DNA from: Acidobacteriota bacterium
Lineage (GTDB): Bacteria; Acidobacteriota; Thermoanaerobaculia; Multivoradales; J023
DNA length: 47,395 nucleotides
Assembly (NCBI GenBank): GCA_038530905.1
Contig: JBCBCF010000002.1
Coordinates: 1 to 47,395, forward strand
Reading direction: 5' to 3'
In this document: positions 7,760 through 44,692 of the stretch, in pieces
Layout of the letters: every line of letters starts with the position of its first letter
How positions within the stretch are numbered: the first letter of the stretch is position 1
Notes under the pieces: model-generated
The model's input: the letters and a program-made list of their open reading frames with translations, nothing else
Databases searched by the model: none
What the model was told of the DNA's origin: nothing
Program-made: the position numbers and the translations under genes

Positions 7760-9064
7760 ATGGACGCCCTTTCCCCCGCTTCGACCGCCTGGCTGCTGAC
7801 TGCCAGTGCTCTCGTCTTGTTGATGACACCTGCGCTCGCCTTCTTCTACGGCGGCTTGGTGCGACGCAAGAACGCGCTCAACACGATGATGATGAGCTTC
7901 GCGGCGACCGGAGTCGTCGGCGTCGTCTGGGCGACCCTTGGCTACAGCCTGGCCTTCTCGCCGGGCAACCGCTGGATCGGCGGGCTGGATTATGTGTTGC
8001 TGCGCGGTGTCGGGCTCGAGGCGAACGGCGAGGTGCCGCATTTGCTCTTCATGACCTTCCAGGGCACCTTCGCCGTGATCACGGCTGCTCTCATCTCGGG
8101 AGCCGTGGCAGAACGCATGCGCTTCGGCGCGTATCTCCTCTTCATCGCCGCCTGGACGCTCTGCGTCTACGCACCGGTCTGCCATTGGGTGTGGGGCGAC
8201 GGCTGGCTGGCCGCACTCGGTGCGCTCGACTTCGCGGGCGGAACGGTGGTCCACGTCAACGCTGCCGCGGCGGCGGTGGTTGCGGCGCTGGTGGTCGGAG
8301 CGCGGCGCGATCACGGTCGACGCGCGATGCTGCCGCACAACGTGCCGTTCGTGCTTCTTGGCGCCGGTCTGCTCTGGTTCGGTTGGTTCGGCTTCAACGC
8401 CGGCAGCGCGCTGGCCGCCGACGGCGTTGCGGCGCTCGCCTTCGCCAACACGTTCTTTGCTCCGGCGGCAGCGCTCACCGCGTGGCTGCTGCTCGACCTG
8501 CTGGTCACCGGGCGGGCGACGGCGGTAGGTGCAGCGACGGGTGTCGTCGTCGGCCTGGTGGCGATCACGCCGGCAGCGGGCTTCGTCTCGCCGGCCGCGT
8601 CGCTGGCGATCGGCGCTCTTGCGGTGGGCCCGAGCTATTGGGCGATTCTGCGTCGTTCACGCTCGCGCCTCGACGACAGTCTCGAGGTCGCGGCGGCCCA
8701 CGGCATGGGCGGCATCGTGGGCGCGCTCTTGACCGGTGTCTTCGCCGGCGCCGCCTGGGGCGGCGCGAGCGGCTTGATCGAGGGCGGACTCGCCGCTGGC
8801 GGTCGCCAGGTGGCGGTGCAGGCGGTGGCCGTCCTCGGCACACTCGTCTACAGCGGCGTCGCCAGCTTCCTTCTGCTGAACATGATCGGCCTCGTAGTGC
8901 CTTTGCGAGCAACATCGGGCGACGAGCGTCGCGGCCTCGACGGGCCGCAGCATGGCGAGCAGGCCTATGTCGACGGTGATGGGGCGGTGCTCCTCCTGCC
9001 GGATGCGACGCCGCCCGCCGAGCGCCCGCAGCTGACGATCGAACCGGCAGCGGCGACGTCGTGA
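7760..9064 (+). CDS. amtB: ammonium transporter (Amt family)
   Basis: 434 aa. 'LVLLMTPALAFFYGGLVRRKN', 'DFAGGTVVHVNAAAAA', 'WFGWFGFNAGS' and 'AAHGMGGIVGALLTG'. GGGAGA lies 7 nt upstream. Confidence 0.9.
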   Translation: MDALSPASTAWLLTASALVLLMTPALAFFYGGLVRRKNALNTMMMSFAATGVVGVVWATLGYSLAFSPGNRWIGGLDYVLLRGVGLEANGEVPHLLFMTFQGTFAVITAALISGAVAERMRFGAYLLFIAAWTLCVYAPVCHWVWGDGWLAALGALDFAGGTVVHVNAAAAAVVAALVVGARRDHGRRAMLPHNVPFVLLGAGLLWFGWFGFNAGSALAADGVAALAFANTFFAPAAALTAWLLLDLLVTGRATAVGAATGVVVGLVAITPAAGFVSPAASLAIGALAVGPSYWAILRRSRSRLDDSLEVAAAHGMGGIVGALLTGVFAGAAWGGASGLIEGGLAAGGRQVAVQAVAVLGTLVYSGVASFLLLNMIGLVVPLRATSGDERRGLDGPQHGEQAYVDGDGAVLLLPDATPPAERPQLTIEPAAATS

Positions 9065-9086
9065 GCCGCGCGCGGAGGCTGAAGGA

Positions 9087-9464
9087 ATGAAGCTGATTAC
9101 TGCGATCATCCGTCCGGAGCGACTCGACGACGTGCTCGCCGCTCTCTTCGCCATCGATGTGCGTGGGCTGACCATGACCCGAGCGGCTGGCCACGGCGGG
9201 GAGCTGGAGCGTGTCGAGACCTATCGCGGCACCACGGTGAAGATGGAGCTGGTCGACAAGATTCGGCTCGAGATCGGCGTCTCGGACGGCTTTGTCGAGC
9301 GGACGATCGAGGCGCTGGTGGCGGCTGCGCGCACCGGCGAGGTTGGCGACGGCAAGATTTTCGTCACCCCGGTCGAGCGGGTCGTGCGCATTCGCACGGG
9401 GGAGGTCGACGCAGCGGCGGTGACGCCTGCCGAACCGGCGTCAGCCGAGTCGTCCGACAGCTAG
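9087..9464 (+). CDS. glnK: nitrogen regulatory protein P-II
   Basis: 'MKLITAIIRPERLDDV', T-loop 'GHGGELERVETYRGTT' and 'TGEVGDGKIFVTPVE'. It starts 22 nt after amtB, the classic amtB-glnK pair. Confidence 0.9.
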   Translation: MKLITAIIRPERLDDVLAALFAIDVRGLTMTRAAGHGGELERVETYRGTTVKMELVDKIRLEIGVSDGFVERTIEALVAAARTGEVGDGKIFVTPVERVVRIRTGEVDAAAVTPAEPASAESSDS

Positions 9465-9685
9465 CGGGCCGCGGGCGTCGTCGACGATCGATCGGTGTCG
9501 ATGATCGGTCGGTCTCACTCGGTCCGACTGCGGAGCCGGTGCGTCTGATAGCATTGCCGCAAAGCGGCATTTTGCCGTTCCGCAGCAATGACACGACGCG
9601 TCTCGGCCGCCTGTTCGCGGGTCGCGAGATGCCCCTCGACCGACGGCCCGACGTCGGTCGCCGTGCCGACTCCGAAAGGACCGCC

Positions 9686-14335
<4,650 letters not shown>

Positions 14336-21808: not shown

Positions 21809-22780
21809 TCAGAAACGACCCCGATGCCGCGGGCGAAGCTCGTCGCGGGTGACGACGCCGTCGCCGTCGGCGTCGACGCGGTCGAAGAGGCCGGCCAGCC
21901 GGTCGACGTCGACCGAGCGCTCGCCGGCTCCGGGCCGGTCGGGCAGCTCGCGATCGGCGAAAGCAGCCAGCTCGGCGCCGGAGAGCATGCCGTCGGCGTC
22001 GGCGTCCGCGGCGTCGAGAAAGGCAGTCCACTCGCTGCGCTGGACCGCTCCGTCCCCGTCGACCTCGGCGAGGCGGAGCAGGCGGGCGCCGAAGCGGGCG
22101 CGCTGTCGAGGGTGCGGACCACCGCGGAGGCGGCGTGGTGGCATCTCGTCGGCGGTGATGGAGCCGTCACCGTTGCGGTCCAGCTGGTCATAGACCATCT
22201 GCAGCTCGACGATCTCGGTTGCGCCGTTGCCGTCGAGATCGAGAGGCCGCGGGCGGTCCGCTTCGCCATCGCGACCCGGACGGGCAGGACCCCGACGGTC
22301 GCCGCGGCGAGACTCGACGAGCGCGCGGATCTCGTCGTCGGCGACGGTGCCGTCGCCGTCAACGTCGAGCTCGGCGAGAAAGGCGCTCCATTCTTCGGGC
22401 GAGATGTCGCGGCTGCGATCGACGTCGGCGGCCCGCAGCATCAGGCCGGAGGCGCGCGGCGGCAGGGCGTCGAAGTCGTCCTCGGTGACAGCTCCGTCGT
22501 CGTTCCGGTCGAGGAATGCGAAGTGACGCGACTCGGCGGCGATCTCAGCGGCGGTGACTGCGCCGTTGCCGTCCGCGTCGAAGCGCTCGGCGAAGCGGTC
22601 CCAGCGGTCGAGATCCTGTTCGGGCGGCTGCGCGCCGACGGCCAGAGCGGAGAGCAGGCTCATCGCTACGAAGGCGACGAGAACAACGACATGAGTGAAC
22701 GTGAAGCGTGCGCCTCGGCCGCGCGTCGCAGATGAGTCTTGAAATGTGTTTTCAACACTGTCTTGGAATCGATGGGTCAT
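21809..22780 (-). CDS. secreted multi-EF-hand calcium-binding protein (9 DxDxDG-type loops)
   Basis: ATG 22778-22780 with GGAGA upstream. Signal 'VVVLVAFVAMSLLSALAVGA'. Loops include 'DADGNGAVTAAE', 'DRNDDGAVTEDD', 'DVDGDGTVADDE', 'DLDGNGATEIVE', 'DRNGDGSITADE', 'EVDGDGAVQRSE', 'DADADGMLSGAE' and 'DADGDGVVTRDE'. Confidence 0.8.
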   Translation of the reverse strand: MTHRFQDSVENTFQDSSATRGRGARFTFTHVVVLVAFVAMSLLSALAVGAQPPEQDLDRWDRFAERFDADGNGAVTAAEIAAESRHFAFLDRNDDGAVTEDDFDALPPRASGLMLRAADVDRSRDISPEEWSAFLAELDVDGDGTVADDEIRALVESRRGDRRGPARPGRDGEADRPRPLDLDGNGATEIVELQMVYDQLDRNGDGSITADEMPPRRLRGGPHPRQRARFGARLLRLAEVDGDGAVQRSEWTAFLDAADADADGMLSGAELAAFADRELPDRPGAGERSVDVDRLAGLFDRVDADGDGVVTRDELRPRHRGRF

Positions 22781-22925
22781 CGGGATTCTCCTGGTCGAGC
22801 GGCTCGTCCTTCGAGCCATCCCCATCCTAGGAAGCGGTCGTGTTCGAGTCTTCAGCAGCACGCAAGAACTTCGTCAAGGGTGTAAAGCTGGTCGCCGCCC
22901 GCCCGGCAGATGGTCCGAAGGTCCC

Positions 22926-22931
22926 TATACT
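22926..22931 (+). promoter_or_regulatory. -10 box TATACT, 6 nt before GTG 22938 (leaderless-type)
   Basis: cccTATACTgagttgGTG, with no Shine-Dalgarno. Confidence 0.35.
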
Positions 22932-22937
22932 GAGTTG

Positions 22938-24824
22938 GTGAGATTGTCGTGGCTCGCCCGCCGCTCTGGCCTGCTGCCCTGGCTTGCGTTAGGGCTGCTG
23001 CTCGCTCTCCTGGGCGTGCTGGCCGTGCTGCAGTTTCGGTGGCTCGGCGAGGCGGCCAGGGCCGATCGGCTGCGGACGGCCGCCAGCCTGCGCGCCGGCG
23101 CCGTCGATTTCGCGCGGGATGCCGAACGCGAGTTGATCCGCCCGGTGCTGGAGCTGCTGCCCGAGATCGTACGGAGCGACGGCTGGCACGGCGATGAGAA
23201 CCAGCTCGCCGCAGCGCTGGCCGCGGGGCGTCAGCGCTGGCGGTGGACAGCGCCCGATCCCGAGCTACTGGCCTCGATCGAGGTCCTGATGCCTCTCCCC
23301 GATGGCAAAGGCGCGCACCTGTCGTTGAGGCCGAACGGCCGGCTCGAGCCGCATGCCGGTGGCCCGCTCGCGTCGCTGTGGTCCGATGGTGGCGTCTCGG
23401 CCTGGTCGGGTCTCGCGGGTCGGCGGTTGCGCTCTAGACTCCTTGGAGTGCGACTTGTCGACGACGCACCGGTTCTCGTGTTGCCGATGGGCGGCGCGCG
23501 CAGCGGGCCGCGAGAAGAAGTCGATGCGACGGTCGATGGCGACGAGGATGAGTTGCCTGACGCCAATCGCAATGCGAACCCGGAGCGCTTCGCTCGTCGC
23601 TGGCTGCGGTCGCGGACGCGCGGCCGCGCCGGCGGAGGGCTCCTGGTCGTGCGCCTCGATGGGGATGCGGTGCGGGGTCGGCTGCTGCCGGAGCTGGCGA
23701 ACCGGCACTTTCGCACCGGTGACGGTGAGCTGGGTGCTTCCGTGCGCCTGCGGGTCGACGGGACCGCCTGGTGGTCGATCGGTGGCGCGGAACCGGTCGA
23801 GGCGACGAACGTCCGTTCGACCCCGGGGCCGCCTCCCGACGTGGTCGTGTCTCTCTTCGATCGCGGTCCGGATGCTCGTGCGTCGCCGCGGCTCGGGCCA
23901 CCAAGCGGCCGGCTTCGGCCGATGGCGCTCGGCCCGCCAGCAGCGGCATGGAGCCTCGAGGTCAACCATCCGTCGGGATCGCTCGATGTCGCGGTGCGGC
24001 GCGCGCGCCGCGGCAGCTTCGCGCTCGGTCTGGCGATCTTGGCTCTGCTCGGTCTTGCCGCGGTCTTTTTGGCGCTCGGCGCGGCGCGCGCGCGTGCGCT
24101 GGCGGCGCGCCAGCTCGACTTCGTTGCAGGCATGACGCACGAGCTGCTGACGCCGCTGGCCGCCCTGCGCTCGGCCGGACAGAATCTCGCCGACGGGGTC
24201 GTCAACGATCCTGCGCAGGTGGCGCGCTATGGCGAGCTGGTCGAGCGCGAGGGTCGGCGGCTGTCGGATCTCGTGCAGCAGGTCCTGGCCTTCGCCGGAG
24301 TGTCGAGCCGGCAGCTCCGCTATCGACCGCAGCCGGTCGCTCTTGCGGCGGCGGTGCGCGACGTGCTGGCGGCTCTCGGCCCTGCCATCGAAGCTGCCAA
24401 CGTCGCGGTCGACGTCGACGTGTCAGCGGATCTTCCGGCGGTCGAAGTCGATCGCGAGGGTCTCGATCGGGCGCTTTCTAATCTGATCGCCAACGCGCTC
24501 AAACACGGCCAGAGCGAAGATGGCTCTGGCTGGCTGCGGATCGCCGCTGCACGCCGAGGCGGGCGGATCGCGGTCGAAGTGGTGGATCGGGGCCCCGGCC
24601 TAGATCCACGCGACCGTGGCCGGATCTTCGAGCCGTTTGTTCGCGGGCGCGGCAAGACCGCCAGCGCCACGCCGGGCGGCGGGCTGGGTTTGGCGTTGGT
24701 GCACCATTTCGCGGTCGGCCATCGGGGCCGTGTCCGCGTCGGCCCAGGAGCGGACGGCCGAGGTGTGACGTTCACCCTCGAGCTGCCGATTGCGGCAGCC
24801 GTGGGCGCATTTTCGGAGGCTTGA
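22938..24824 (+). CDS. sensor histidine kinase (HisKA + HATPase_c) with large N-terminal sensing region
   Basis: H-box 'FVAGMTHELLTPLAALRSAGQNL', N-box 'LSNLIANALKHG', G1 'VVDRGPGLDP' and G2 'GGGLGLALV'. N-terminal TM 'LLPWLALGLLLALLGVLAVL'. The start (GTG 22938) is inferred. Confidence 0.8.
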   Translation: MRLSWLARRSGLLPWLALGLLLALLGVLAVLQFRWLGEAARADRLRTAASLRAGAVDFARDAERELIRPVLELLPEIVRSDGWHGDENQLAAALAAGRQRWRWTAPDPELLASIEVLMPLPDGKGAHLSLRPNGRLEPHAGGPLASLWSDGGVSAWSGLAGRRLRSRLLGVRLVDDAPVLVLPMGGARSGPREEVDATVDGDEDELPDANRNANPERFARRWLRSRTRGRAGGGLLVVRLDGDAVRGRLLPELANRHFRTGDGELGASVRLRVDGTAWWSIGGAEPVEATNVRSTPGPPPDVVVSLFDRGPDARASPRLGPPSGRLRPMALGPPAAAWSLEVNHPSGSLDVAVRRARRGSFALGLAILALLGLAAVFLALGAARARALAARQLDFVAGMTHELLTPLAALRSAGQNLADGVVNDPAQVARYGELVEREGRRLSDLVQQVLAFAGVSSRQLRYRPQPVALAAAVRDVLAALGPAIEAANVAVDVDVSADLPAVEVDREGLDRALSNLIANALKHGQSEDGSGWLRIAAARRGGRIAVEVVDRGPGLDPRDRGRIFEPFVRGRGKTASATPGGGLGLALVHHFAVGHRGRVRVGPGADGRGVTFTLELPIAAAVGAFSEA

Positions 24825-24825
24825 C

Positions 24826-25515
24826 GTGGTTGGAGCCAGAATCCTGCTGATCGAAGACGAACCGAGTCTCCTGCTCACCCTCGGTGATCGGCTGCGCGGC
24901 GAGGGGGCGGAGGTCGCGATCGCGGAGGACGGTGTCGCTGGCGAGGCGGCGGCGGCGGCCGGCGGCTTCGATCTTGTCGTTCTCGACCTCAATCTACCCT
25001 CGAAGGGCGGCCTCGACGTGTGCCGAGATCTGCGCGCTCAGGGGGTCGAGGTGCCGATCCTGATGCTGACCGCCCGCGGCGAGACGATCGACAAGGTTGT
25101 CGGACTGCGCCTGGGCGCCGACGACTATCTCGCCAAGCCGTTCGAGATGGTCGAGCTCTTGGCCCGCGTCGACGCGCTCTTGCGCCGTCGACGCTCGATG
25201 CCGAGCGGCGGTGAGCGTGCGCACTTCGGGGACGTCCGGCTGGATCGGACCGCCGCCACGGTCACCAAAGGCAGCGAGCCGGTGGAGCTGTCCGCTCTCG
25301 AGATGCGCCTCCTCGAATACTTCGTGGCGCATCCTGACGAGGTTCTGAGCCGCGATCGACTGCTGAACGAGGTCTGGGGCTACGACGCGACGCCGGTGAC
25401 CCGGACCGTCGATGTGCATGTCGCCTCGCTCCGTCAGAAGCTCGAAGACGTTCCATCCAAGCCGCGCCATCTGCTGACGGTCCACGGGCGCGGCTATAAA
25501 TTCATCGCGGACTGA
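24826..25515 (+). CDS. OmpR/PhoB-family response regulator
   Basis: 'ILLIEDE', 'DLVVLDLNLP', 'LMLTARG' and 'YLAKPF', plus winged helix 'RTVDVHVASLRQKLE..TVHGRGYKF'. GTG 24826 lies 1 nt after the HK stop, with GGAGG 7 nt upstream. Confidence 0.85.
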   Translation: MVGARILLIEDEPSLLLTLGDRLRGEGAEVAIAEDGVAGEAAAAAGGFDLVVLDLNLPSKGGLDVCRDLRAQGVEVPILMLTARGETIDKVVGLRLGADDYLAKPFEMVELLARVDALLRRRRSMPSGGERAHFGDVRLDRTAATVTKGSEPVELSALEMRLLEYFVAHPDEVLSRDRLLNEVWGYDATPVTRTVDVHVASLRQKLEDVPSKPRHLLTVHGRGYKFIAD

Positions 25516-25561: not shown

Positions 25562-26380
25562 TCAAGGCTCCGGCAGCGTGAACGGCACCGGCTCCGGCGA
25601 GGTGTAGACCGCGTCCGGTAGATCATCGAAGACGCCGATCGGCGTCAGGTCGCGCGACGTGCCGCCTTCACCGAGCTGGACGCGCGTGCCGGCCAGCATG
25701 ATGTCGCCGTACTCCCGCCAGTCGGTCCAGTCCCAGGCGGTCGGCTCGCGATCGGCCTCCCAGCTCTCGAGGTGATACGCCCAGCGGCTCATCAGGCCGG
25801 ACTCGGGATCGAACCATGCCCAATAGGTGTCGCCGGGGGTCAGGCCGACCTCGCCGAAGGTGAGGCGGATCTTCTCGAGCTCGGTGCCGTCAACCGTCTC
25901 GCGGCCTTCGTAGGCTAGATGAACGCCGGGATCGAGAACTTTGTAGGGCATCACGAGCCAATAGACATCGTTGATCCAGGCGCCGTAGGCACGCTCCAGC
26001 CATTCGGCCGCGGCGTCACCCGCGAGGAGCTCACCGTCGAGAAAGACCTGCCCGGTGCGGCTGTTGACGTTGTGGAGCACAACGTAGTTCTGACCCTCGC
26101 GGGTGGCGCCTTCGAGTCGATGGCGGCCGGTCTCACGATCCCAGGCGTGGCGTCGGAAGTCGAAGAAATCGAAAACCAGGTGGCGGCTGGCGGCCCAGGC
26201 GTCGGCGCCGCCCATGCCGTCGAGAGCCTTCTGGGCGATCTCGACCGCTTTCGGGTCGCGGGTCTCCGAGTCGGAGGAGGCGGCAGCAGTGACGGGGAGG
26301 AGGAGGCAGAGCAGCGCAGCGGCGAGTGCGAACCGATGGTGCACACCAGTACGGTGAGGACGGGCGAGGGGATCCATCAT
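25562..26380 (-). CDS. hypothetical secreted protein
   Basis: ATG 26378-26380 with GGAG 5 nt upstream. Signal 'FALAAALLCLLLPVTAAAS'. Trp/Asp-rich mature part. I recognise no family. Confidence 0.55.
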   Translation of the reverse strand: MMDPLARPHRTGVHHRFALAAALLCLLLPVTAAASSDSETRDPKAVEIAQKALDGMGGADAWAASRHLVFDFFDFRRHAWDRETGRHRLEGATREGQNYVVLHNVNSRTGQVFLDGELLAGDAAAEWLERAYGAWINDVYWLVMPYKVLDPGVHLAYEGRETVDGTELEKIRLTFGEVGLTPGDTYWAWFDPESGLMSRWAYHLESWEADREPTAWDWTDWREYGDIMLAGTRVQLGEGGTSRDLTPIGVFDDLPDAVYTSPEPVPFTLPEP

Positions 26381-26479
26381 GGGGTCTCCAGGGCTGGCCG
26401 GCGATGTCGAGAGGCAGCGACCGGCAGAATGAGCGGTGATACGATCCCCTTCGCTTCCGAGCCTTCCGGAGATTCGTTC

Positions 26480-27082
26480 ATGTCGCTTCTCGACTATCCC
26501 GCCCTGATCCAGGACGCGCTGCGCGACGTGGTGCGCCGGACGCTGACGCTCGTTGCGCAGCACGGAATTCCGGATCGCCACCACTTCTACATCACCTACC
26601 GAACGGACGCCGAGGGGGTCGTGCTGGCCGAATCGTTGCGCCAGCAATACCCGGAAGAGATCACCATCGTGCTGCAGCACGACTTCCGGGATCTCGACGT
26701 CGATCGGGCGGGATTCGCGGTGACGCTGCGCTTCGGCGGTGTGCCGCATCGGGTGGTGGTGCCGTTCGCGGCGATGATCGGCTTCTACGATCCCTCGGAG
26801 CAGTTCTTGTTGCGCTTCGACGCCGGCTCCGAGGCGGCGGAGGTCGGCGACACGACGGCTTCCGGCCTGCGCCCCACCGGCGCGCCGGTTCTCCGCGAGG
26901 CGACGCCGCTCGATCCGGCGCCCGCCGCCGCGGACGTCGACGAGATGGCGTCCGCCTTCGTCGGCCCGAGGAAAGACGCGACGGGAGAGAAGGTGCCGGA
27001 AGACGAGGTCGCGGGGACCGATCCCGAGCGGCTGCCAGCCGACACCAACGTGGTCTCCTTCGACAGCTTCCGTCGGCGCTGA
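26480..27082 (+). CDS. sspB: SspB-like ClpXP adaptor (alphaproteobacterial-type stringent starvation protein B homologue)
   Basis: 'DYPALIQDALRDVVRRTL..HHFYITYRTDAEGVVLAESLRQQYPEEITIVLQHDFRDLDVD..FAVTLRFGGVPHRVVVPFAAMIGFYDPS' parallels Caulobacter SspB (recalled). It has a disordered linker and ends 'VVSFDSFRRR'. GGAG lies 9 nt upstream. Confidence 0.65.
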   Translation: MSLLDYPALIQDALRDVVRRTLTLVAQHGIPDRHHFYITYRTDAEGVVLAESLRQQYPEEITIVLQHDFRDLDVDRAGFAVTLRFGGVPHRVVVPFAAMIGFYDPSEQFLLRFDAGSEAAEVGDTTASGLRPTGAPVLREATPLDPAPAAADVDEMASAFVGPRKDATGEKVPEDEVAGTDPERLPADTNVVSFDSFRRR

Positions 27083-27100
27083 CGCTGCGCCGAGGTCCCC

Positions 27101-27985
27101 GTGTCGCTCCTCGGACTTCTTTATTACCTGTCACCCGTGCTGACGGTGGTGGCGGTGATCGACATCCTCCGCACGCGTTCAGAGTGGTGGTGGGTGCTGA
27201 TCGTCCTGTTTTTTCAGCCTTTCGGTCCGCTGATCTACTTTGCTTTGTCGTACGGCCCGTGGTCGACGGCGGGGAGCGTGCGCCAGCTGTCGCCGGCCGC
27301 CGCGCGCCGCGCTCAGGCGCGCCGCCAGCTGCGTGATTTGCAGGTGCAGCTTGGTCATTGGCGCGGACCCGCCGTGCTCGCCGAGGCCGGCGAGCAGTGG
27401 ATGACGCTCGGCAAGATGGATGCTGCCGAGTCTCATCTGCGCGAGGCGCACGAGGCCGGCGCCAAGCCCAAGGACGTGAGCTTCAACTTCGCGCAGGTTC
27501 TGCAGGTGCGCGGCGGTCGCTATGCCGAGTCTCTGCCGCGGCTCGAGGAGTTGATCGCCGTCGAGCCCGATGCGCGCTTCGGCGTCGCCCGTCTGGCGCT
27601 CGCCCGAGCGCTCGACGAAACGGGCGATGACGCGCGGGCCGAAGAGGAGCTCCGAGCGGTCCTCGCCAAGCGCAGCCCGCCCGAAGCCAAAGTGCGGCTC
27701 GCACGGCTTCTGCTGCGCCGCGGAGACGGGGAAGAGGCCCGCCGGCTGCTCGACGAGGTGCAACGGGACGCGGCCACAATGCCCGCGTATCTCAAGCGCG
27801 AACACGGCCCGTGGATCCGCGCAGCGCGGCGAGTCCGGTCGGGCACCGAGGCGGTGCCGAAGCCGCGGCTTGAAGGCGCGCCGCCGCGCGGCCGTCTGTG
27901 GGTGGCTTTGGCCGTCTCTCTCGGCGTGCTGTTGGTTCTCTTCGCGCTCTACGGCTATGGCTTCGTGAACCTGCCGTTCGGCTGA
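27101..27985 (+). CDS. membrane protein: PLDc_N-type N-terminal 2-TM domain + TPR repeats + C-terminal TM
   Basis: 'LSPVLTVVAVIDILRTRSEWWWVLIVLFFQPFGPLIYFAL' matches the PLD-nuclease N-terminal (PLDc_N) pattern. The middle is TPR-like helical repeats, and the C-terminal TM is 'LWVALAVSLGVLLVLFALYGY'. GTG start lies 18 nt after the sspB stop. Confidence 0.6.
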   Translation: MSLLGLLYYLSPVLTVVAVIDILRTRSEWWWVLIVLFFQPFGPLIYFALSYGPWSTAGSVRQLSPAAARRAQARRQLRDLQVQLGHWRGPAVLAEAGEQWMTLGKMDAAESHLREAHEAGAKPKDVSFNFAQVLQVRGGRYAESLPRLEELIAVEPDARFGVARLALARALDETGDDARAEEELRAVLAKRSPPEAKVRLARLLLRRGDGEEARRLLDEVQRDAATMPAYLKREHGPWIRAARRVRSGTEAVPKPRLEGAPPRGRLWVALAVSLGVLLVLFALYGYGFVNLPFG

Positions 27986-28001
27986 GCGGCATCGTCAGCG
28001 G

Positions 28002-29039
28002 ATGAAACTCCTCGCCAGCTACGACGAGGTGGTCGATCGGCTCGGCCCGTCGCGTGCCCTGCTGCTCGGCAATGGCTTCAGCATCGGTTTCGACGACCGC
28101 TTTCGCTACCGTGCTCTGCGCGAGCGCACCAACCTCGAGCTGCCGGAGATCGCCCGCGATCTTTTCGAGCGTCTGGGAACCTCCAGCTTCGAGGTCGTCA
28201 TGGAGGTGCTCGAGAGCGCCGGCTGGGTCAACCGGCACTACGGCGGAGCGCAGGTCGACCCGCAGATCGACGACGACGTCGCCGCCACGCGCCACGCGAT
28301 GGTGGCAGCAATCGAGCAGGACCACGTGCCGGGCCTCGGCCACGGCGCAGAGCGCGAGGGGGACACGATGTCGACACGGGTCGATGTGGTCGCGGACTTC
28401 CTCGATCGCTTCGACCGGGTCTTCACGACCAACTACGATCTCCTGCTCTACTGGTGCTGTCTGGCGGCCCACCAGCGGGGACGTTCCCGCTGGCGTGATG
28501 GCTTCCTGCGGCGCCAGGGTGACGCCTTTGGGACCTTCACGCCCGATCTCGACGTCCGTCTTTTCTTTCTGCATGGCGCGCTCCATCTCTACGAGCACGC
28601 GATGAGTCATGGCGGCGACCTCACGGCGCGCAAGCGCGTGCGGTCCGAAGAACGAAGTCTGCGCGACCTGGTCCGGGAGATGATCGGCGAGAAGTCTTTC
28701 CCCCTCGTCATCGCTGAGGGGTCGGCGGAGCGCAAGCTGCAGCGCATCCGCGCCAATCGCTACCTGTCGGCTGCGTTCGACGCGTTCGGCCGCCTCGAGG
28801 GCGACCTGGTCGTCTATGGCCATCGGCTCGGTCTGAGCGACCGCCACCTGCTGCGGGCGATGATCGACGCAGAGGCGCTCGAGACGCTGTTCGTCGGCCT
28901 GTACGATGACCCCGAGTCGCCAGGGAACCTCGAGACGCGAGCGGCGATCGCGCGCCTCGAGCAGGAGGCGGGAGATCAGGCTCCGGAGACGTTCTTTTTC
29001 CCGTCGCAGACCGCGCCGGTCTGGACGCGCCCGGACTGA
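28002..29039 (+). CDS. stand-alone SIR2-like protein (DUF4917-type)
   Basis: 345 aa. It has 'LLLGNGFS' (aa 20-27), 'FTTNYDLLLYW' (aa 141-151) and 'FFLHGALH' (aa 188-195), i.e. Gly loop, TxNxD and HG in SIR2/SIR2_2 order and spacing. It starts 16 nt after the TPR gene stop. Confidence 0.55.
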   Translation: MKLLASYDEVVDRLGPSRALLLGNGFSIGFDDRFRYRALRERTNLELPEIARDLFERLGTSSFEVVMEVLESAGWVNRHYGGAQVDPQIDDDVAATRHAMVAAIEQDHVPGLGHGAEREGDTMSTRVDVVADFLDRFDRVFTTNYDLLLYWCCLAAHQRGRSRWRDGFLRRQGDAFGTFTPDLDVRLFFLHGALHLYEHAMSHGGDLTARKRVRSEERSLRDLVREMIGEKSFPLVIAEGSAERKLQRIRANRYLSAAFDAFGRLEGDLVVYGHRLGLSDRHLLRAMIDAEALETLFVGLYDDPESPGNLETRAAIARLEQEAGDQAPETFFFPSQTAPVWTRPD

Positions 29040-29066
29040 AGCTCTGGCTGCGGAACGTTCGGCGAC

Positions 29067-29567
29067 TCAGCCGCGCGCGCCCTCGCGCCGACGCCGACGG
29101 CCGCCGGTGCCGCGAATCCGGTCGAGCGCGCGCTGGCCGCCGAAGCGCGCCACGATGCGGTCGTCGTAGCGATCCGAGATCTCGGCGACCGCGGCCACGG
29201 CATGGAACAGACTCTGCCGCTCGAGGTCGTCGGCGAAGAGCGTGTGTGAGAAGAAGATGTCGCGGCCGACGACCGAGAACGCGCCGAAGGGCAGCGTGTG
29301 GTTCGCCTCGAGCAATGCGGTCGCAAGCTCCTCGTCGACCTCGGCGCCCTGGACGCAATAGGCCATGATCACGATCGTCGTGCCGTCGGCGACCTCGATG
29401 TCCTCACCGCGATGCTCCTCCGCACCGATCTCGAGCACCGTCGAGCCGTAGCTGACGTAGAACTGCCCCTCCTCCTCGATGACCTCGTCGAAGAGTTCGG
29501 CGAGGTAGACGCCGAGCCTGCGCTCGAGCTCGGGATCGCTGGTGTCGCGTTCGGAATCGGTCGTCAT
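29067..29567 (-). CDS. YbjN-family (T3SS-chaperone-like fold) protein
   Basis: ATG 29565-29567 (MTTDSERD...). 'QFYVSYGSTVLEIG', 'TTIVIMAYCVQG', 'LLEANHTLPFGAFSVVGRDIFFSHTLFADDLE' and 'ISDRYDDRIVARFGG' fit the YbjN pattern, followed by a basic tail. Confidence 0.5.
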   Translation of the reverse strand: MTTDSERDTSDPELERRLGVYLAELFDEVIEEEGQFYVSYGSTVLEIGAEEHRGEDIEVADGTTIVIMAYCVQGAEVDEELATALLEANHTLPFGAFSVVGRDIFFSHTLFADDLERQSLFHAVAAVAEISDRYDDRIVARFGGQRALDRIRGTGGRRRRREGARG

Positions 29568-29711
29568 GAGAGCCGCCGCTGGTCCGGAGGTGGGCAGAGA
29601 GCGAGCCGCGATCGGCCCGAAGAGGGCGCCCAGGATACCCGACGGACGGGTGCCGCGCGAGGCGGTTCTTGAGGTCATCTTTCCCCGGACTACCGCCTCG
29701 CTACCGTCTGC

Positions 29712-29717
29712 TACGAT
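29712..29717 (+). promoter_or_regulatory. -10 box TACGAT, 8 nt before uvrA ATG 29726 (leaderless-type)
   Basis: gcTACGATccgccgccATG, with no Shine-Dalgarno. Confidence 0.35.
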
Positions 29718-29725
29718 CCGCCGCC

Positions 29726-32560
29726 ATGGACATGATCACCGTCCGGGGAGCCCGCGAGCACAATCTCAAAAACCTCACCGTCGAGATTCCGCGCAACCGC
29801 CTGGTGGTCATCACCGGCGTCTCGGGTTCGGGCAAGTCGTCGCTTGCCTTCGACACGCTCTTCGCCGAGGGACAGCGACGCTACGTCGAGTCGCTCTCGA
29901 CCTACGCCCGGCAGTTTCTCCAGCAGATGGAGAAGCCGGACATCGACTCGATCGAGGGATTGTCGCCGGCGATCTCGATCGAGCAGAAGTCGGTCTCGCG
30001 CAATCCACGCTCGACCGTCGGGACGGTCACCGAGATCCACGATTACCTCCGTCTGCTCTTCGCGTCGATCGGCGTTCCGCACTGTCCGGAGTGCGGCATT
30101 CCGATTCAGCCGCAGACGGTGCAGCAGATGGTCGACCGCGTGCTCGCCCTGCCCGCCGGCACGCGCTTGGAGCTGATGGCTCCGTACGTGCGGGGCAAAA
30201 AGGGCGAGTACCGCAAGCAGCTCGAGCAGATGGCGCGGGAGGGTTTCGTGCGCGCGCGCATCGACGGCGAGATCTACGATCTTTCGGCGGATCCTCCGAA
30301 GCTCGACAAGCGACGCAAGCACACGATCGACCTGGTGATCGACCGCCTCGTGGTCAAGCCGGGGATCGAGAAACGGCTCGCGCAGTCGATCGAAACGGCG
30401 CTTGGTGTTGCCGACGGCCTGGTGCTCCTGGTGCCGCGTGGCGGCGACGAAGAGCTGCTGTCGCGCAACTGGGGCTGCACGGGATGCGGCTTCAACCTGC
30501 CCGAGGTGTCGCCGCGCCTCTTTTCGTTCAACAGCCCGTTTGGCGCTTGCACCGAATGCGCCGGCCTCGGCACGCTGATGCGTGTCGACCCGGAGAAGGT
30601 CGTGGTCGATCCCGCGCGCTCGATCGACGCCGGCGCGGTGGCGCCGTGGAAGCCGGGCTCGGGCTCGATGCGCATGCGGATGGTCGAGAATGTCGCCGAG
30701 GCGCTCGGCTTTTCATTGTCGACGCCGTGGCGCAAGCTGCCGGCCAAGACGCGCGAGATCCTGCTCTACGGCTCCGGCGACCGCGAGATGGAGTTCGCAG
30801 TCAAAGGCAAGCGCTCCAGCTATACCTGGCAGGGATCGTTCGAAGGTGCCGTGCGCCGCCTCGAGAGGCGCTATCGAGAGACCGACTCGACCGCCGTGCG
30901 CACGGAGATCGAGCGCTATATGTCGGTGCAGATCTGCCCGAGCTGCAAGGGTCGGCGGCTGCGCCCGGAAGCGCTTGCCGTCCGCGTCGATGAGCACTCG
31001 ATCGACGAGCTCGAGGCGCTGCCGGTCGACGAGCTGCACTCGGTGATTCTCGATCTCGAGCTGTCGGAGCGGGATCGCTCGATCGTCGCGAAAGTGATGC
31101 AGGAGATCCAGGATCGGCTCAGCTTCTTGGTCAACGTCGGCGTTGGCTATCTCACCCTCGATCGGTCGGCCGCGACGCTGTCGGGCGGTGAGTCTCAGCG
31201 CATCCGACTGGCGACGCAGATCGGCTCGAAGCTGATGGGCGTCCTCTATGTGCTCGACGAGCCGTCGATCGGTCTCCACCAGCGCGACAATGCACGGCTG
31301 ATTCGCACACTGCAGGGCATGCGCGATCTCGGCAATTCGGTTCTGGTCGTCGAGCACGACGAGGACACGATTCTGGCAGCCGACCATGTCCTCGACCTCG
31401 GGCCGGGCGCCGGTGTGCACGGCGGCGAGTTGGTGGCGCAAGGCTCGCCGCAGGAGATCGAGGCCGACCCTGCGTCGCTGACTGGTCAGTACCTGTCCGG
31501 CATGCGAGCGATCGAGCTGCCGGAGCGGCGGCCGATCGATCGCGACAAGCGGATCATCGTGCGCGGAGCGCGCCACAACAACCTACGCAACGTCACGGCG
31601 GCGTTTCCGGTCGGCTTGTTGACTGTCGTGACCGGCGTCTCGGGTTCGGGAAAGTCGAGCCTGGTCAACGATGTCCTTCACAAGGCGATGGCCCGACACT
31701 TCTATCGTGCCGGGGATCGGCCGGGGGAGCACTCCACGATCGACGGTCTTGAGCACGTCGACAAGGTGATTTCGATCGATCAGAGCCCCATCGGCCGTAC
31801 ACCGCGCTCGAATCCGGCCACCTACACGAATGTTTTCAACCACGTGCGCAACCTGATGGCCAAGACTCCGGAAGCGCGCATGCGCGGCTACAAGCCGGGC
31901 CGGTTCTCGTTCAACGTCGCCGGTGGTCGCTGCGAGCACTGCAAGGGCGACGGTCAGATCAAGATCGAGATGCACTTTCTGCCTGACATTTATGTGACTT
32001 GCGATGTCTGTGGCGGCAAGCGCTATGACCGCGAAACGCTGCAGGTGCGCTACAAGGGCCTCAACATCGCGGAGATCCTGGACTTGACGGTCGAACAGGC
32101 GCTCGAGGTGTTCGCCAACGTGCCGGCGGCGAAGCGGATCTTTCAGACGCTTTCCGATGTCGGGCTCGGCTACGTCAAGCTCGGGCAACCGGCCACGACG
32201 TTGTCCGGCGGCGAGGCGCAGCGCGTCAAGCTGGCGACTGAGCTGGCGAAGCGTTCGACCGGTCGGACCCTCTATCTGCTCGACGAGCCGACCACTGGCC
32301 TGCATTTCGAAGACGTGCGCAAGCTCCTCGACGTATTGCAGCGCCTCACCGCCAAGGGCAACACGGTGATCATCGTCGAGCACCACCTCGATGTCATCAA
32401 GTCGGCGGATTGGATCCTCGATCTCGGACCGGAAGGCGGGGCCGGTGGCGGTGAGTTGATCGCGGAAGGGACGCCCGAAGAAGTGGCTCAGAACACCGGC
32501 AGTCAGACCGGTCGATTCCTGGCCCCGGTCTTGGCGAAAGCACGACGCCACGCCGCGTGA
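29726..32560 (+). CDS. uvrA: excinuclease ABC subunit A
   Basis: '[41 protein letters not shown]', two ABC modules ('[12 protein letters not shown]', '[12 protein letters not shown]') and Zn modules 'CPECG', 'CTGCG..CTEC', '[14 protein letters not shown]'. 944 aa from ATG 29726. Confidence 0.95.
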
Positions 32561-42328: not shown

Positions 42329-44692
42329 TCAGCCGACCGTGCGCACGGCCAGGCTGGTCGCCGGCAGGCCGATCGTCTGCAGCACCCGACGGAACGCGTC
42401 CACGTCGACAAGACCCTGGAACGCTGGCTCGACGCCGATCCAGATCAGGTCGGCGGCGCGCACCTTGACCGCGCGTTCGAGCGAGGCGATGGCGAGATCC
42501 TGATAGTCCAGGATGGCATAGGCCTGCGCTAGAAGAGTCGGCGGCACGTAGTGCCGATTGGACAGCTCCGGCAGGCGGTCGAGCAGGCTCGAGGCCCGCT
42601 CGAGACGGCCCGCGGCGGCATGCACCATCGCCAGCGTCACGAGAGCTTCCGGGCGTCCGGGCTCCATCTTGGCGCCGATGGTGCCGATCTCGAGAGCCTC
42701 GCGGTCATCGCCGATGCGGGCCAGCAGGCGAGCGAGCGAGTACCGGGCGAGGGAGAATTGATCGTCCGCCTCGACCACGCGCCGCAGCTCTCGCTCTGCC
42801 TGCTCGTCGCGCCCGGCGTAGGAGAAGAGCAAGCCCAGGCACGTCTGCACCGGGAGCGAGAGCGGATCCAGCTCCGCAGCGCGACTGAGCTGGTCCAGCG
42901 CCTTCTCGAACTGCAGTCGCGGTACCAGGACGTTCATAGCGTGCCATTGGTAGCCGAGCGGATAGTGCGGATCGATCATCAGCGCGCGCTCGAAGGCTTC
43001 GGCGGCTGCCTCCAGGTCCCAGTCGTAGCAAGAGAGCACGCAGCCGAGTGAGGTCAGGGCCTCGGCCGACTTCGGATCATGCTCCAGGGCCTCCATCGCC
43101 GCCTGCTTGGCGCGCGGCATCACCCGCATGGGCGGCGCCATGCCGTAGGCGCCGAGCATCGCGTAGGCATCGGCAACACCGGCACGGGCGCGGGCGAATC
43201 CCGGCTCGCGCGCCAGAGCCATCTGGAAGTAGTCGATCGCCCGCCGCATCTCCGGCTCGGAGCGGCGCATCCAGCAGTGGCGGCCTTTGAGGTAGAGATT
43301 CTGTGCTTCGAAGCTGCCGGCGCGGCGCGGCGGAGGCAGATCGCTGCGTTCCAGCGGCTGGCGATTCGGCGTTGCGAGCGGGGCTTCGAGCGCCTCGACG
43401 ATGCGTTCGGCCAGCTCGTCCTGGATGTCGAACAGGCTATCGAGGCGTCGGTCGTAGGTCGCCGACCAGAGGATCGTGTCGTCTTCGGCGAGCACTAGGC
43501 GCGCCGTCACGCGCACACGGTCATGCGAGGTCCGAACGCTGCCCTGGAGCAAGAAATCGGCGCTTGGATGGCGCAAGGCGAGATCGACTCCGGTCGGCGT
43601 GCGCGTCGCGATGCGTAGGCCCTCTCGCGGTGTCAGGCGGGCGATCAACTCCTCCGCGAGGCCGTAGCAGAGGTGAGCTTGGTCGCTGTCTCGGCTGAGG
43701 TCGCGGAAGGTCTCGACCACTACGGTCGGGACCCGCGGACGCGAGGCGCCGCCCAGCGCTCGCTGATCGATGCGCGCGTCGGCGGAATCCGCCGGCACCG
43801 GCGTGCGCGTTGCGGGCGCCGGTCGCTGGGCGGCCGGATCGCCGATGAGCCCTGGGCCGCGCGGCGCCGAGTCCACCTCGCTCTCGAGGTCGGCGAGCAG
43901 CTCGGCAGCGTGGCGGTAGCGATCCTCTGGGTCCTTTGCCAAGCACCAGCGCAGAATCTGCCGCAGGCGCATGTTCTGCGGTGCGTCGTAGCGCAGTGTC
44001 GGCTCCGGCTCCTCCTGCAGAATCACGGCCTTCAGCGCCTCGCGATCGCGAGCTCGGAAGGGCCGCTCGCCGGTCGCCATCTGGTAGAGGACGACGCCGA
44101 GCGACCAGATGTCCGTGCGCCGATCGATCGCCTGCCGGGACAGCTGCTCAGGCGACATATACGGCATTGTGCCAAGCGCCGAGCGAGCCCGCGGGCCGGG
44201 CAGCTTGGCAACGCCGAAGTCGAGAATCTTGACCTTGTCGTTGTCGGTGATCAGCAGGTTGGCGGGTTTGACGTCGCAGTGCACGATCTCGCATCGATGC
44301 GCCTCGGCGAGGCCGTCGGCCACCTGCCGCGCGATCGACAGAGCGACTTCGTGCGCCAGCGGCCGACCCTCGGCGCGTTCCAGTCGCTCGTCGAGGGTCT
44401 CGCCGGCGTAGAACGCCATGGCGATGAACGGATCGCCCTCGGCACTCTCTGAGATCTCGTAGATCGTGCAGATGTTCGGGTGTTCGAGGGCGGAGGCAGC
44501 GAGCGCCTCCTGAAGGAGACGCTCGCGGGCGACATCGTCGCGCCGGCTCGGCGGCAGGAATTTCAGCGCAACCTGGCGGTCGAGACGCTCGTCGATCGCT
44601 CGATAGACCACGCCCATGCCGCCGCTGCCGAGCTTCTCAACGATGCGGTAGTGGTGAATCTTGTCGCCGATCACGAAGTGTCGCCGTCCCAA
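42329..44692 (-). CDS. Ser/Thr protein kinase with middle TolB-N-like region and C-terminal TPR array
   Basis: 'LGSGGMGVVYRA', 'VALKFL', 'HCDVKPANLL', 'DFGVAK' and 'GTMPYMSPEQ', followed by TPR-like repeats to the C-terminus. The ORF-track start is TTG 44692. GTG 44674 is an alternative. Confidence 0.85.
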   Translation of the reverse strand: MGRRHFVIGDKIHHYRIVEKLGSGGMGVVYRAIDERLDRQVALKFLPPSRRDDVARERLLQEALAASALEHPNICTIYEISESAEGDPFIAMAFYAGETLDERLERAEGRPLAHEVALSIARQVADGLAEAHRCEIVHCDVKPANLLITDNDKVKILDFGVAKLPGPRARSALGTMPYMSPEQLSRQAIDRRTDIWSLGVVLYQMATGERPFRARDREALKAVILQEEPEPTLRYDAPQNMRLRQILRWCLAKDPEDRYRHAAELLADLESEVDSAPRGPGLIGDPAAQRPAPATRTPVPADSADARIDQRALGGASRPRVPTVVVETFRDLSRDSDQAHLCYGLAEELIARLTPREGLRIATRTPTGVDLALRHPSADFLLQGSVRTSHDRVRVTARLVLAEDDTILWSATYDRRLDSLFDIQDELAERIVEALEAPLATPNRQPLERSDLPPPRRAGSFEAQNLYLKGRHCWMRRSEPEMRRAIDYFQMALAREPGFARARAGVADAYAMLGAYGMAPPMRVMPRAKQAAMEALEHDPKSAEALTSLGCVLSCYDWDLEAAAEAFERALMIDPHYPLGYQWHAMNVLVPRLQFEKALDQLSRAAELDPLSLPVQTCLGLLFSYAGRDEQAERELRRVVEADDQFSLARYSLARLLARIGDDREALEIGTIGAKMEPGRPEALVTLAMVHAAAGRLERASSLLDRLPELSNRHYVPPTLLAQAYAILDYQDLAIASLERAVKVRAADLIWIGVEPAFQGLVDVDAFRRVLQTIGLPATSLAVRTVG

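Follow-up and report, generated by a model that had tools for sequence, protein, structure and literature searches.

The window analysed here is the whole 47,395-nucleotide stretch at positions 1 to 47,395 of contig JBCBCF010000002.1 from an Acidobacteriota bacterium (assembly GCA_038530905.1). It contains a gene for a 345-residue SIR2-like protein (gene B), which follows a gene for a membrane protein with PLDc_N and tetratricopeptide repeat (TPR) regions (gene A) and a gene for an SspB-like ClpXP adaptor. A preliminary description, made from the sequence alone, had presented A and B as a candidate undescribed conflict module targeting nicotinamide adenine dinucleotide (NAD+). The open reading frames (ORFs), coordinates, motif positions, intergenic gaps and domains that it gave agree with our ORF listing, with Pfam and with a second assembly. 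B is a divergent member of a catalogued, functionally untested defence-candidate family, and not an undescribed system. The features of the locus are the following:

26480-27082, + strand: SspB-like ClpXP adaptor gene, 200 aa (Pfam SspB, E 4e-41)
27101-27985, + strand: gene A, 294 aa, GTG start; PLDc_N two-helix hairpin, TPR repeats and a C-terminal transmembrane helix
28002-29039, + strand: gene B, 345 aa, ATG start; single-domain SIR2-like DUF4917/PDC-S21 protein (ORF listing, Pfam, PADLOC)
28068-28082, + strand: codons G23-N24-G25-F26-S27 of B, Gly-rich NAD-phosphate loop after strand beta-1
28425-28439, + strand: codons T142-T143-N144-Y145-D146 of B, SIR2_2-type TTNYD motif with the putative catalytic Asn144
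28572-28586, + strand: codons H191-G192-A193-L194-H195 of B, with the putative catalytic His191
28818-28847, + strand: codons G273...G277..D280.H282 of B, C-terminal motif common to SIR2_2 and AbiH-type proteins
29067-29567, - strand: TY-Chap1/YbjN-like gene (Pfam TY-Chap1, E 1.5e-16), convergent with B
Beyond the YbjN-like gene and divergent from it: uvrA

B belongs to the catalogued family DUF4917/PDC-S21. Residues 20-341 match the complete Pfam profile DUF4917 (PF16263, positions 1-311 of 311) with E 3e-39 and 135.7 bits (cut-off 28), well outside the range of chance, as are the matches of the neighbouring A and SspB genes. Residues 1-342 match positions 1-335 of 336 in the PADLOC model of PDC-S21 (PDLC04960, E 2.4e-75), and a second PDC-S21 model, PDLC04961, gives E 2.3e-65. 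PDC-S21 is a single-gene system for which no second component is required, and B belongs to it by these hidden Markov model (HMM) matches. The PDC set consists of candidates that await testing, and it derives from genes found within BREX, DISARM and type I restriction-modification (R-M) loci (bioRxiv 10.1101/2024.01.29.577857). We found no mention of the name PDC-S21 in the papers searched or in the searched supplement text of the guilt-by-embedding paper. More than 2,860 DUF4917 proteins came up in the homologue search, and the best 120 of them all have 310-383 aa. The nearest non-self BLASTP match of B has 45% identity, and identity to any sampled member is at most 47%. With a full-length PDC-S21 match, and with one DUF4917 protein, SliP, already characterised (PMC10421069), the locus can no longer be called undescribed.

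The motifs of B are LLLGNGFS (aa 20-27), FTTNYDLLLYW with Asn144 and FFLHGALH with His191. In an alignment of 39 homologous sequences the residues G23-N24-G25-F26-S27, N144-Y145-D146, H191-G192, L194 and H195 are invariant, as are K211, K245, G273, G277, D280, H282 and W341; every position that is invariant in the 38 other homologues is retained in B. The only cysteines are C152 and C153, so that B has no Cys4 Zn ribbon, as the preliminary description had noted. It had also named two Pfam profiles by which its assignment could be checked, and these gave different outcomes: DUF4917 matches as above, whereas SIR2_2 (PF13289) remains below its cut-off (E 0.079, 13.5 bits vs 24.5). The weak alignments of B to SIR2_2 and to the PADLOC SIR2 HMM start at aa 139, and the PADLOC SIR2 span (aa 139-194) includes the HG motif. 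The canonical sirtuin profile SIR2 (PF02146) does not match B at E ≤ 1. Since the DUF4917 profile found no match at E ≤ 1 among PDB sequences either, the link to SIR2 rests on the fold and on these weak HMM alignments. Three close homologues (P0051, P0082 and P0102) exceed the SIR2_2 cut-off, with 25.6-27.4 bits over the region from TTNYD to HG, and a fourth (P0067) exceeds the Pfam AbiH gathering score at aa 241-289, in the C-terminal GxSxxDxH region. Judged by these profile matches, DUF4917 seems to bridge SIR2_2 and AbiH.

The AlphaFold2 model of B, computed from the 39-sequence alignment, has a predicted local distance difference test (pLDDT) value of 91.4 and a predicted template-modelling (TM) score of 0.91. 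Its predicted fold is Rossmann-type SIR2. In a Foldseek search of the PDB, places 1-18 are all occupied by the SIR2 protein of E. coli SIR2-HerA (E 4e-9 to 5e-7, TM-score ≤0.65, probability 1.00), followed by SeThsA (7uxt, E 1.6e-3) and then by the ADP-ribosylating sirtuin SirTM. The Foldseek viral library contains nothing below E 0.04 for this model; the top match is a phage SIR2-family protein. The GNG loop follows the strand of residues 18-22, and the glycines G23/G25, N144 and H191 appear in SIR2 order; their equivalence to ThsA N112/H152 comes from weak HMM alignments and not from a superposition. B is thus modelled as a minimal SIR2-like enzyme, with a Rossmann core into which a helical segment (about aa 30-135) is inserted, and without a Zn ribbon, a SLOG domain or a large sensor domain. 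The fold match to the SIR2 of SIR2-HerA (E 4e-9) and to SeThsA, the conserved Gly loop, Asn and His, and the homologues above the SIR2_2 cut-off bear out the earlier view of B as SIR2-like.

Comparison with described systems places B nearest to SIR2 proteins of the defence type. It resembles the SIR2 protein of SIR2-HerA (Nezha; 8sub, 8su9, 8sxx) over almost its full length, including the helical insertion (~390 aligned columns), and in both the NAD-binding core is of SIR2 type and lacks a Zn ribbon. However, their identity is 15-18%, without a match at the sequence level, and a HerA gene is found neither within ±9 kb of B nor among the recurrent neighbours of 80 homologues, which sets B apart from SIR2-HerA. 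With ThsA of Thoeris, B shares the SIR2_2-type TTNYD Asn and HG His motifs and the weak fold match to 7uxt, but it lacks SLOG, is shorter (345 vs about 470 aa) and has no ThsB/TIR gene within ±9 kb; it is not a Thoeris component. DSR1 and DSR2 combine an N-terminal SIR2 domain with a large C-terminal sensor in ~1000 aa, whereas B has 345 aa and its family 310-383. SIR2-pAgo (SPARSA) pairs SIR2 with a short prokaryotic Argonaute (pAgo) and an APAZ partner, and no Piwi/Argonaute gene lies within ±9 kb of B. The canonical sirtuins are distinguished by the Cys4 Zn ribbon and the PF02146 match that B does not have. HerA-, TIR- and pAgo-type systems were therefore rejected for B, as their partner genes are absent. 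The other members of DUF4917/PDC-S21 agree with B in the full-length HMM match, the length class (336-383 aa), the invariant residues and the status of a single gene without an obligatory partner; B differs from them in its low identity and in not being in or near R-M, BREX or DISARM loci in this genome. In its mode of action B would come closest to the defence SIR2 NADases, yet it is filed under DUF4917/PDC-S21.

SliP (C. jejuni Cjj81176_0779) is the only characterised DUF4917 protein. It lowers NAD+, dependent on the GNG glycines G24/G26, and it was threaded on ThsA by Phyre2 (PMC10421069). Its authors read it as a flagellum-secreted lysine deacetylase acting on host histones (PMC10421069). 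The gene is variable, occurring in 36/70 clinical isolates and in 3/66 agricultural and environmental isolates (PMC10421069). B and SliP share the Pfam family and the GNG loop, a likeness drawn via family membership. They differ in setting: SliP is described as a host-directed secreted deacetylase, and the organism of the window is environmental and Acidobacteriota-like, without such a setting.

The family context was surveyed in 80 DUF4917 loci from species-representative genomes, including flanks of up to 10 kb to the left and right. The loci cover Acidobacteriota, Gemmatimonadota, Chloroflexota, Planctomycetota, Proteobacteria, Bacteroidota, Cyanobacteria and candidate phyla. Flanking ORFs were clustered all-against-all, immediate neighbours were scanned with Pfam as separate upstream and downstream sets, and Hsd genes were counted by a seed search. 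Only two large groups of neighbours recur, HsdM/HsdS at 27 loci and HsdR at 19, and the Pfam scan places HsdS/HsdM upstream and HsdR downstream. Type I R-M genes occur at 29 of the 80 loci by the seed-based count, on the same strand as DUF4917 in 28 of these 29. At least 11 loci show the embedded order hsdM-hsdS-DUF4917-hsdR, a cassette carried for instance by L023, L043 and L059. The same search found no Hsd gene in 228 kb of control loci and none in the 47-kb window. Orphan copies, without R-M genes, make up 51/80 loci. Members linked to R-M are dispersed across the entire family in a neighbour-joining tree. Among the other genes directly beside DUF4917 are AbiEii, Mrr_cat, RhuM, resolvases and transposases, and also ordinary metabolic genes.

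DUF4917 has the marks of an accessory gene, for it is also found on 36 plasmid records, 15 of which are from Leptospira interrogans (e.g. NC_025151.1, 29970-30980). The RefSeq annotation of a Methylobacter plasmid gives the order methyltransferase-PDDEXK-HsdS-HsdR-DUF4917, and on Roseomonas and Moraxella plasmids DUF4917 lies near a recombinase, transposases and a HaeIII-family endonuclease. On Moraxella osloensis p4 (L109; 7004-7993, 8539-9324), DUF4917 stands beside the HaeIII-family restriction endonuclease and a Tn3 transposase. A TPR protein is convergent downstream of it; this is the sole other TPR neighbour seen and probably a coincidence. A tblastn search of 50,697 phage records gave no DUF4917 match.

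The R-M genes at 29/80 loci, often in the order hsdM-hsdS-DUF4917-hsdR, tie the family to conflict systems and support a single-gene defence role. The prrC anticodon nuclease gene sits between hsdS and hsdR in the EcoprrI type I R-M locus. Many DUF4917 genes occupy this same slot on the same strand, and by analogy the position suggests a latent effector that is guarded by restriction or backs it up. The proteins themselves differ: PrrC is an ABC-ATPase-like anticodon nuclease and DUF4917 is SIR2-like, the copy in the window has no R-M neighbours, and a functional coupling to restriction would be pure analogy. The conflict role proposed in the preliminary description is thus supported for the family, by the 29 loci with copies beside or in type I R-M operons, and not for the window copy, which has no defence context.

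The copy in the window lies among housekeeping genes. Within ±9 kb of B we find, from the left and in order, genes for a beta-lactamase-fold/TPR protein, a short-chain dehydrogenase/reductase, a multi-EF-hand protein, a histidine kinase with its response regulator and an unknown secreted protein, then SspB, A, B, TY-Chap1, UvrA, a glyoxalase-fold protein, a Band 7 protein, a sulfatase-like protein and a GNAT protein. Pfam detects no HerA, TIR, Argonaute/Piwi, R-M, integrase or transposase gene in this range, in agreement with the preliminary description, which had seen no HerA, TIR or Argonaute nearby. GC content is flat over the region, and the GC content at third codon positions (GC3) of B, 0.84, is similar to that of its neighbours; there is hence no sign of recent transfer. 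The flanks are housekeeping in type and the composition is native, as had been described. The PDC candidates were chosen as genes embedded in or adjoining a known defence system, a placement found at 29/80 loci of the family and not for the window copy. In this Acidobacteriota-like genome B is an orphan surrounded by housekeeping genes, and its composition is native.

Elsewhere in the window, the isocitrate dehydrogenase kinase/phosphatase AceK (190-2037, - strand) and the nitrogen assimilation cluster amtB-glnK-gltB (7760-14332, + strand), which includes glutamate synthase, confirm its core-metabolism character. PADLOC reports further matches in the window: strong ones to PD-T4-6, probably from a Ser/Thr kinase at 42332-44692, and others to mad3, mad6, mad8 and MkoA. 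They look like cross-hits of generic domains to housekeeping genes. The EF-hand protein (21809-22861, - strand) has 350 aa, EF-hand_5/6/1/7 repeats (E ~1e-25) and a hydrophobic, signal-like N-terminus. Its gene is just upstream of the histidine kinase/response regulator pair at 22746-25512, whose reading frames overlap.

In the family tree, B groups with L014, L001 and L002 in a small Acidobacteriota-type clade that contains lone copies only. In the clade nearest to B, a gene for a 719-747-aa protein that matches the SGL/SMP-30 beta-propeller comes after DUF4917 on the same strand (L088, 9078-11291; L089, 2569-4782; L091, 9035-11194). The two genes overlap by 4 nt in L091, and the pair is kept in two species and not in the window. 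The SGL/SMP-30 propeller protein may be a clade-specific partner of DUF4917. The closest homologue of B on a long contig (P0003; identity 43%) precedes an ORF of 87 aa that weakly matches the ParD antitoxin (L086, 9182-9445), in a setting between an RND (resistance-nodulation-division) efflux operon and an M1 peptidase gene.

The transcription of B is probably governed by its position. The SspB stop codon and the start of A are 18 nt apart, and 16 nt separate the stop codon of A from the start of B. Co-transcription of SspB, A and B is likely; between A and B the gap is too small for a promoter. The stop codons of B and of the YbjN-like gene are 27 nt apart, no terminator-like hairpin was detected between them, and the YbjN-like gene is the right-hand limit of the transcription unit of B. 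A divergent intergenic stretch of ~159 nt (29567-29726) separates the YbjN-like/TY-Chap1 gene from uvrA. A scan of 26200-29800 found no promoter-like site and three weak terminator-like hairpins, all within coding sequence, where 1.4 are expected; it is consistent with read-through and otherwise uninformative. The five-gene layout and the gene calls are identical in the independent Logan contig L093.

Pfam identifies PLDc_N (29.7 bits vs 23.3) and TPR_19 (44.7 bits vs 25) in A, which has hydrophobic segments at aa 1-24, 30-51 and 266-288. Only 14 homologues of A were found, and the named ones are from Acidobacteriota (metagenome-assembled genomes of Holophagales and Thermoanaerobaculia). In the five readable loci of these homologues (50-67% identity) there is neither DUF4917 nor SspB, and the neighbours vary (glutaredoxin-like, Usp, VCA0040-like and others). 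A was also considered as an anti-sigma-like substrate delivered by SspB; this was rejected, as the homologues of A are not adjacent to sspB. Conversely, none of the 80 DUF4917 loci contains a tblastn match to A, SspB or the YbjN-like protein, and no TPR or PLDc_N family is among the recurrent immediate neighbours of DUF4917 in Pfam. A search for a genome with SspB-A-YbjN-uvrA and without B found none that is close enough, and a metagenome scan with the YbjN-like protein yielded 12 loci (47-58% identity) without a common synteny. On present sampling the adjacency of A and B is unique to this genome, as chance placement would give. A is not a conserved partner of B, and A and SspB are unrelated neighbours.

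The preliminary description had A and B, with or without SspB, acting as one dedicated conflict module, in which the membrane TPR protein would sense infection or envelope stress and release or activate the SIR2-like NADase. The arrangement is compatible with this: the three genes are co-directional and closely spaced, without a promoter-like site or a convincing terminator between them, the layout recurs in the second assembly, and the TPR domain of A (aa ~95-235), for which the positive-inside rule points to a probable cytoplasmic location, could contact B. The genomic record is against it. An A-like or SspB-like gene is found within 10 kb in 0/80 DUF4917 loci, DUF4917 is found in 0/5 loci of A homologues, TPR and PLDc_N are not recurrent neighbours, the nearest DUF4917 relatives have no such partner, and A has no PADLOC match. 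We consider such a module very improbable, and neither a two-gene nor a three-gene module is supported. The earlier suggestion to look for conservation of the neighbourhood thus gave a divided answer: homologues do stand beside R-M genes (29/80), and the PLDc_N/TPR partner is not retained. A young lineage-specific operon, in which a DUF4917 NADase newly joined a membrane TPR protein and SspB as a membrane-tethered or proteolysis-gated NAD+-depletion switch, would be unseen elsewhere because close relatives are unsampled; we give it an even slimmer chance. Read-through from the SspB and TPR genes probably reaches B simply owing to its position.

We therefore favour, as the probable reading, that B is a soluble, orphan stand-alone SIR2-like enzyme that consumes NAD+ and belongs to a defence-candidate family. 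The GNG loop after the first Rossmann strand would bind NAD+, and Asn144 and His191 would cleave the nicotinamide-ribose bond in the manner of ThsA, DSR and the SIR2 of SIR2-HerA. B would most likely act as a stand-alone NADase of the abortive-infection type, or else as an NAD+-dependent protein modifier, and would need no dedicated partner gene. The main role of the family may be abortive-infection-type defence. Copies embedded between hsdS and hsdR could, by analogy with PrrC, be latent effectors that are released once restriction is blocked.

Several observations weigh against this reading. The ±9 kb around B hold only housekeeping-type genes, no Hsd gene is present in the 47 kb and the GC3 is native, which leaves the copy without a defence or mobile context. 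The relatives nearest to this copy (42-45% identity) likewise stand alone, in surroundings unrelated to defence. In two of them, P0009 and P0018, synteny is kept across species, between an ECF (extracytoplasmic function) sigma gene and the gene for a propeller protein of 720-747 aa, which suggests stable vertical inheritance rather than the turnover of a defence island. A protein of 345 aa without a sensor domain has no evident means of being kept silent. At the sequence level B itself is linked to SIR2 only weakly (SIR2_2 E 0.079; nothing in PDB sequences). The only experimental study of a DUF4917 protein reports lysine deacetylation rather than phage defence, and we found no phage test of any PDC-S21 member in the searchable literature.

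Some of these points fit an enzyme that is not an immune effector at all. B could be a housekeeping or regulatory NAD+-dependent deacylase or ADP-ribosyltransferase, sirtuin-like as SliP, that acts on cellular proteins of this acidobacterial lineage. SliP deacetylates acetyl-lysine peptides with stimulation by NAD+ (PMC10421069), the window copy and its clade have housekeeping contexts and native composition, the synteny of P0009 and P0018 is stable, and a GNAT acetyltransferase gene ~7.5 kb downstream lends weak support. However, the family is patchy over phyla, plasmid-borne and strongly enriched in type I R-M operons across the tree, which is atypical of a housekeeping enzyme. The top structural matches of B are defence NADases and not deacetylating sirtuins, B has no Zn-binding Cys4 module, and the activities of SliP are modest, about 2- to 4-fold (PMC10421069). 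We regard this explanation, the main rival, as unlikely, though worth keeping in view. B might also be a stranded remnant, formerly associated with R-M, whose partners are gone and which has since become neutral or begun to decay. The lack of R-M genes in the window and the frequency of orphan copies (51/80 loci) would fit. A decaying gene is, however, hard to reconcile with a full-length protein that keeps all family-invariant positions, has a confident model and shows normal GC3 in its coding frame, and the orphan copies of sister lineages are intact and syntenic; this origin appears the least probable of all.

The locus extends a family of at least about 2,900 proteins, already in Pfam and PADLOC, by one divergent orphan, and by itself it is of small import. 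The interest lies at the level of the family. DUF4917 is a minimal SIR2-like protein without a sensor domain, and about one third of the sampled members stand beside or in type I R-M operons. The reading of SliP as a secreted deacetylase of host histones may need to be set beside a likely anti-phage origin. Independent of the window, it is a worthwhile question whether a small SIR2 protein serves as a restriction-guarding NADase, and by what means it would be kept off.

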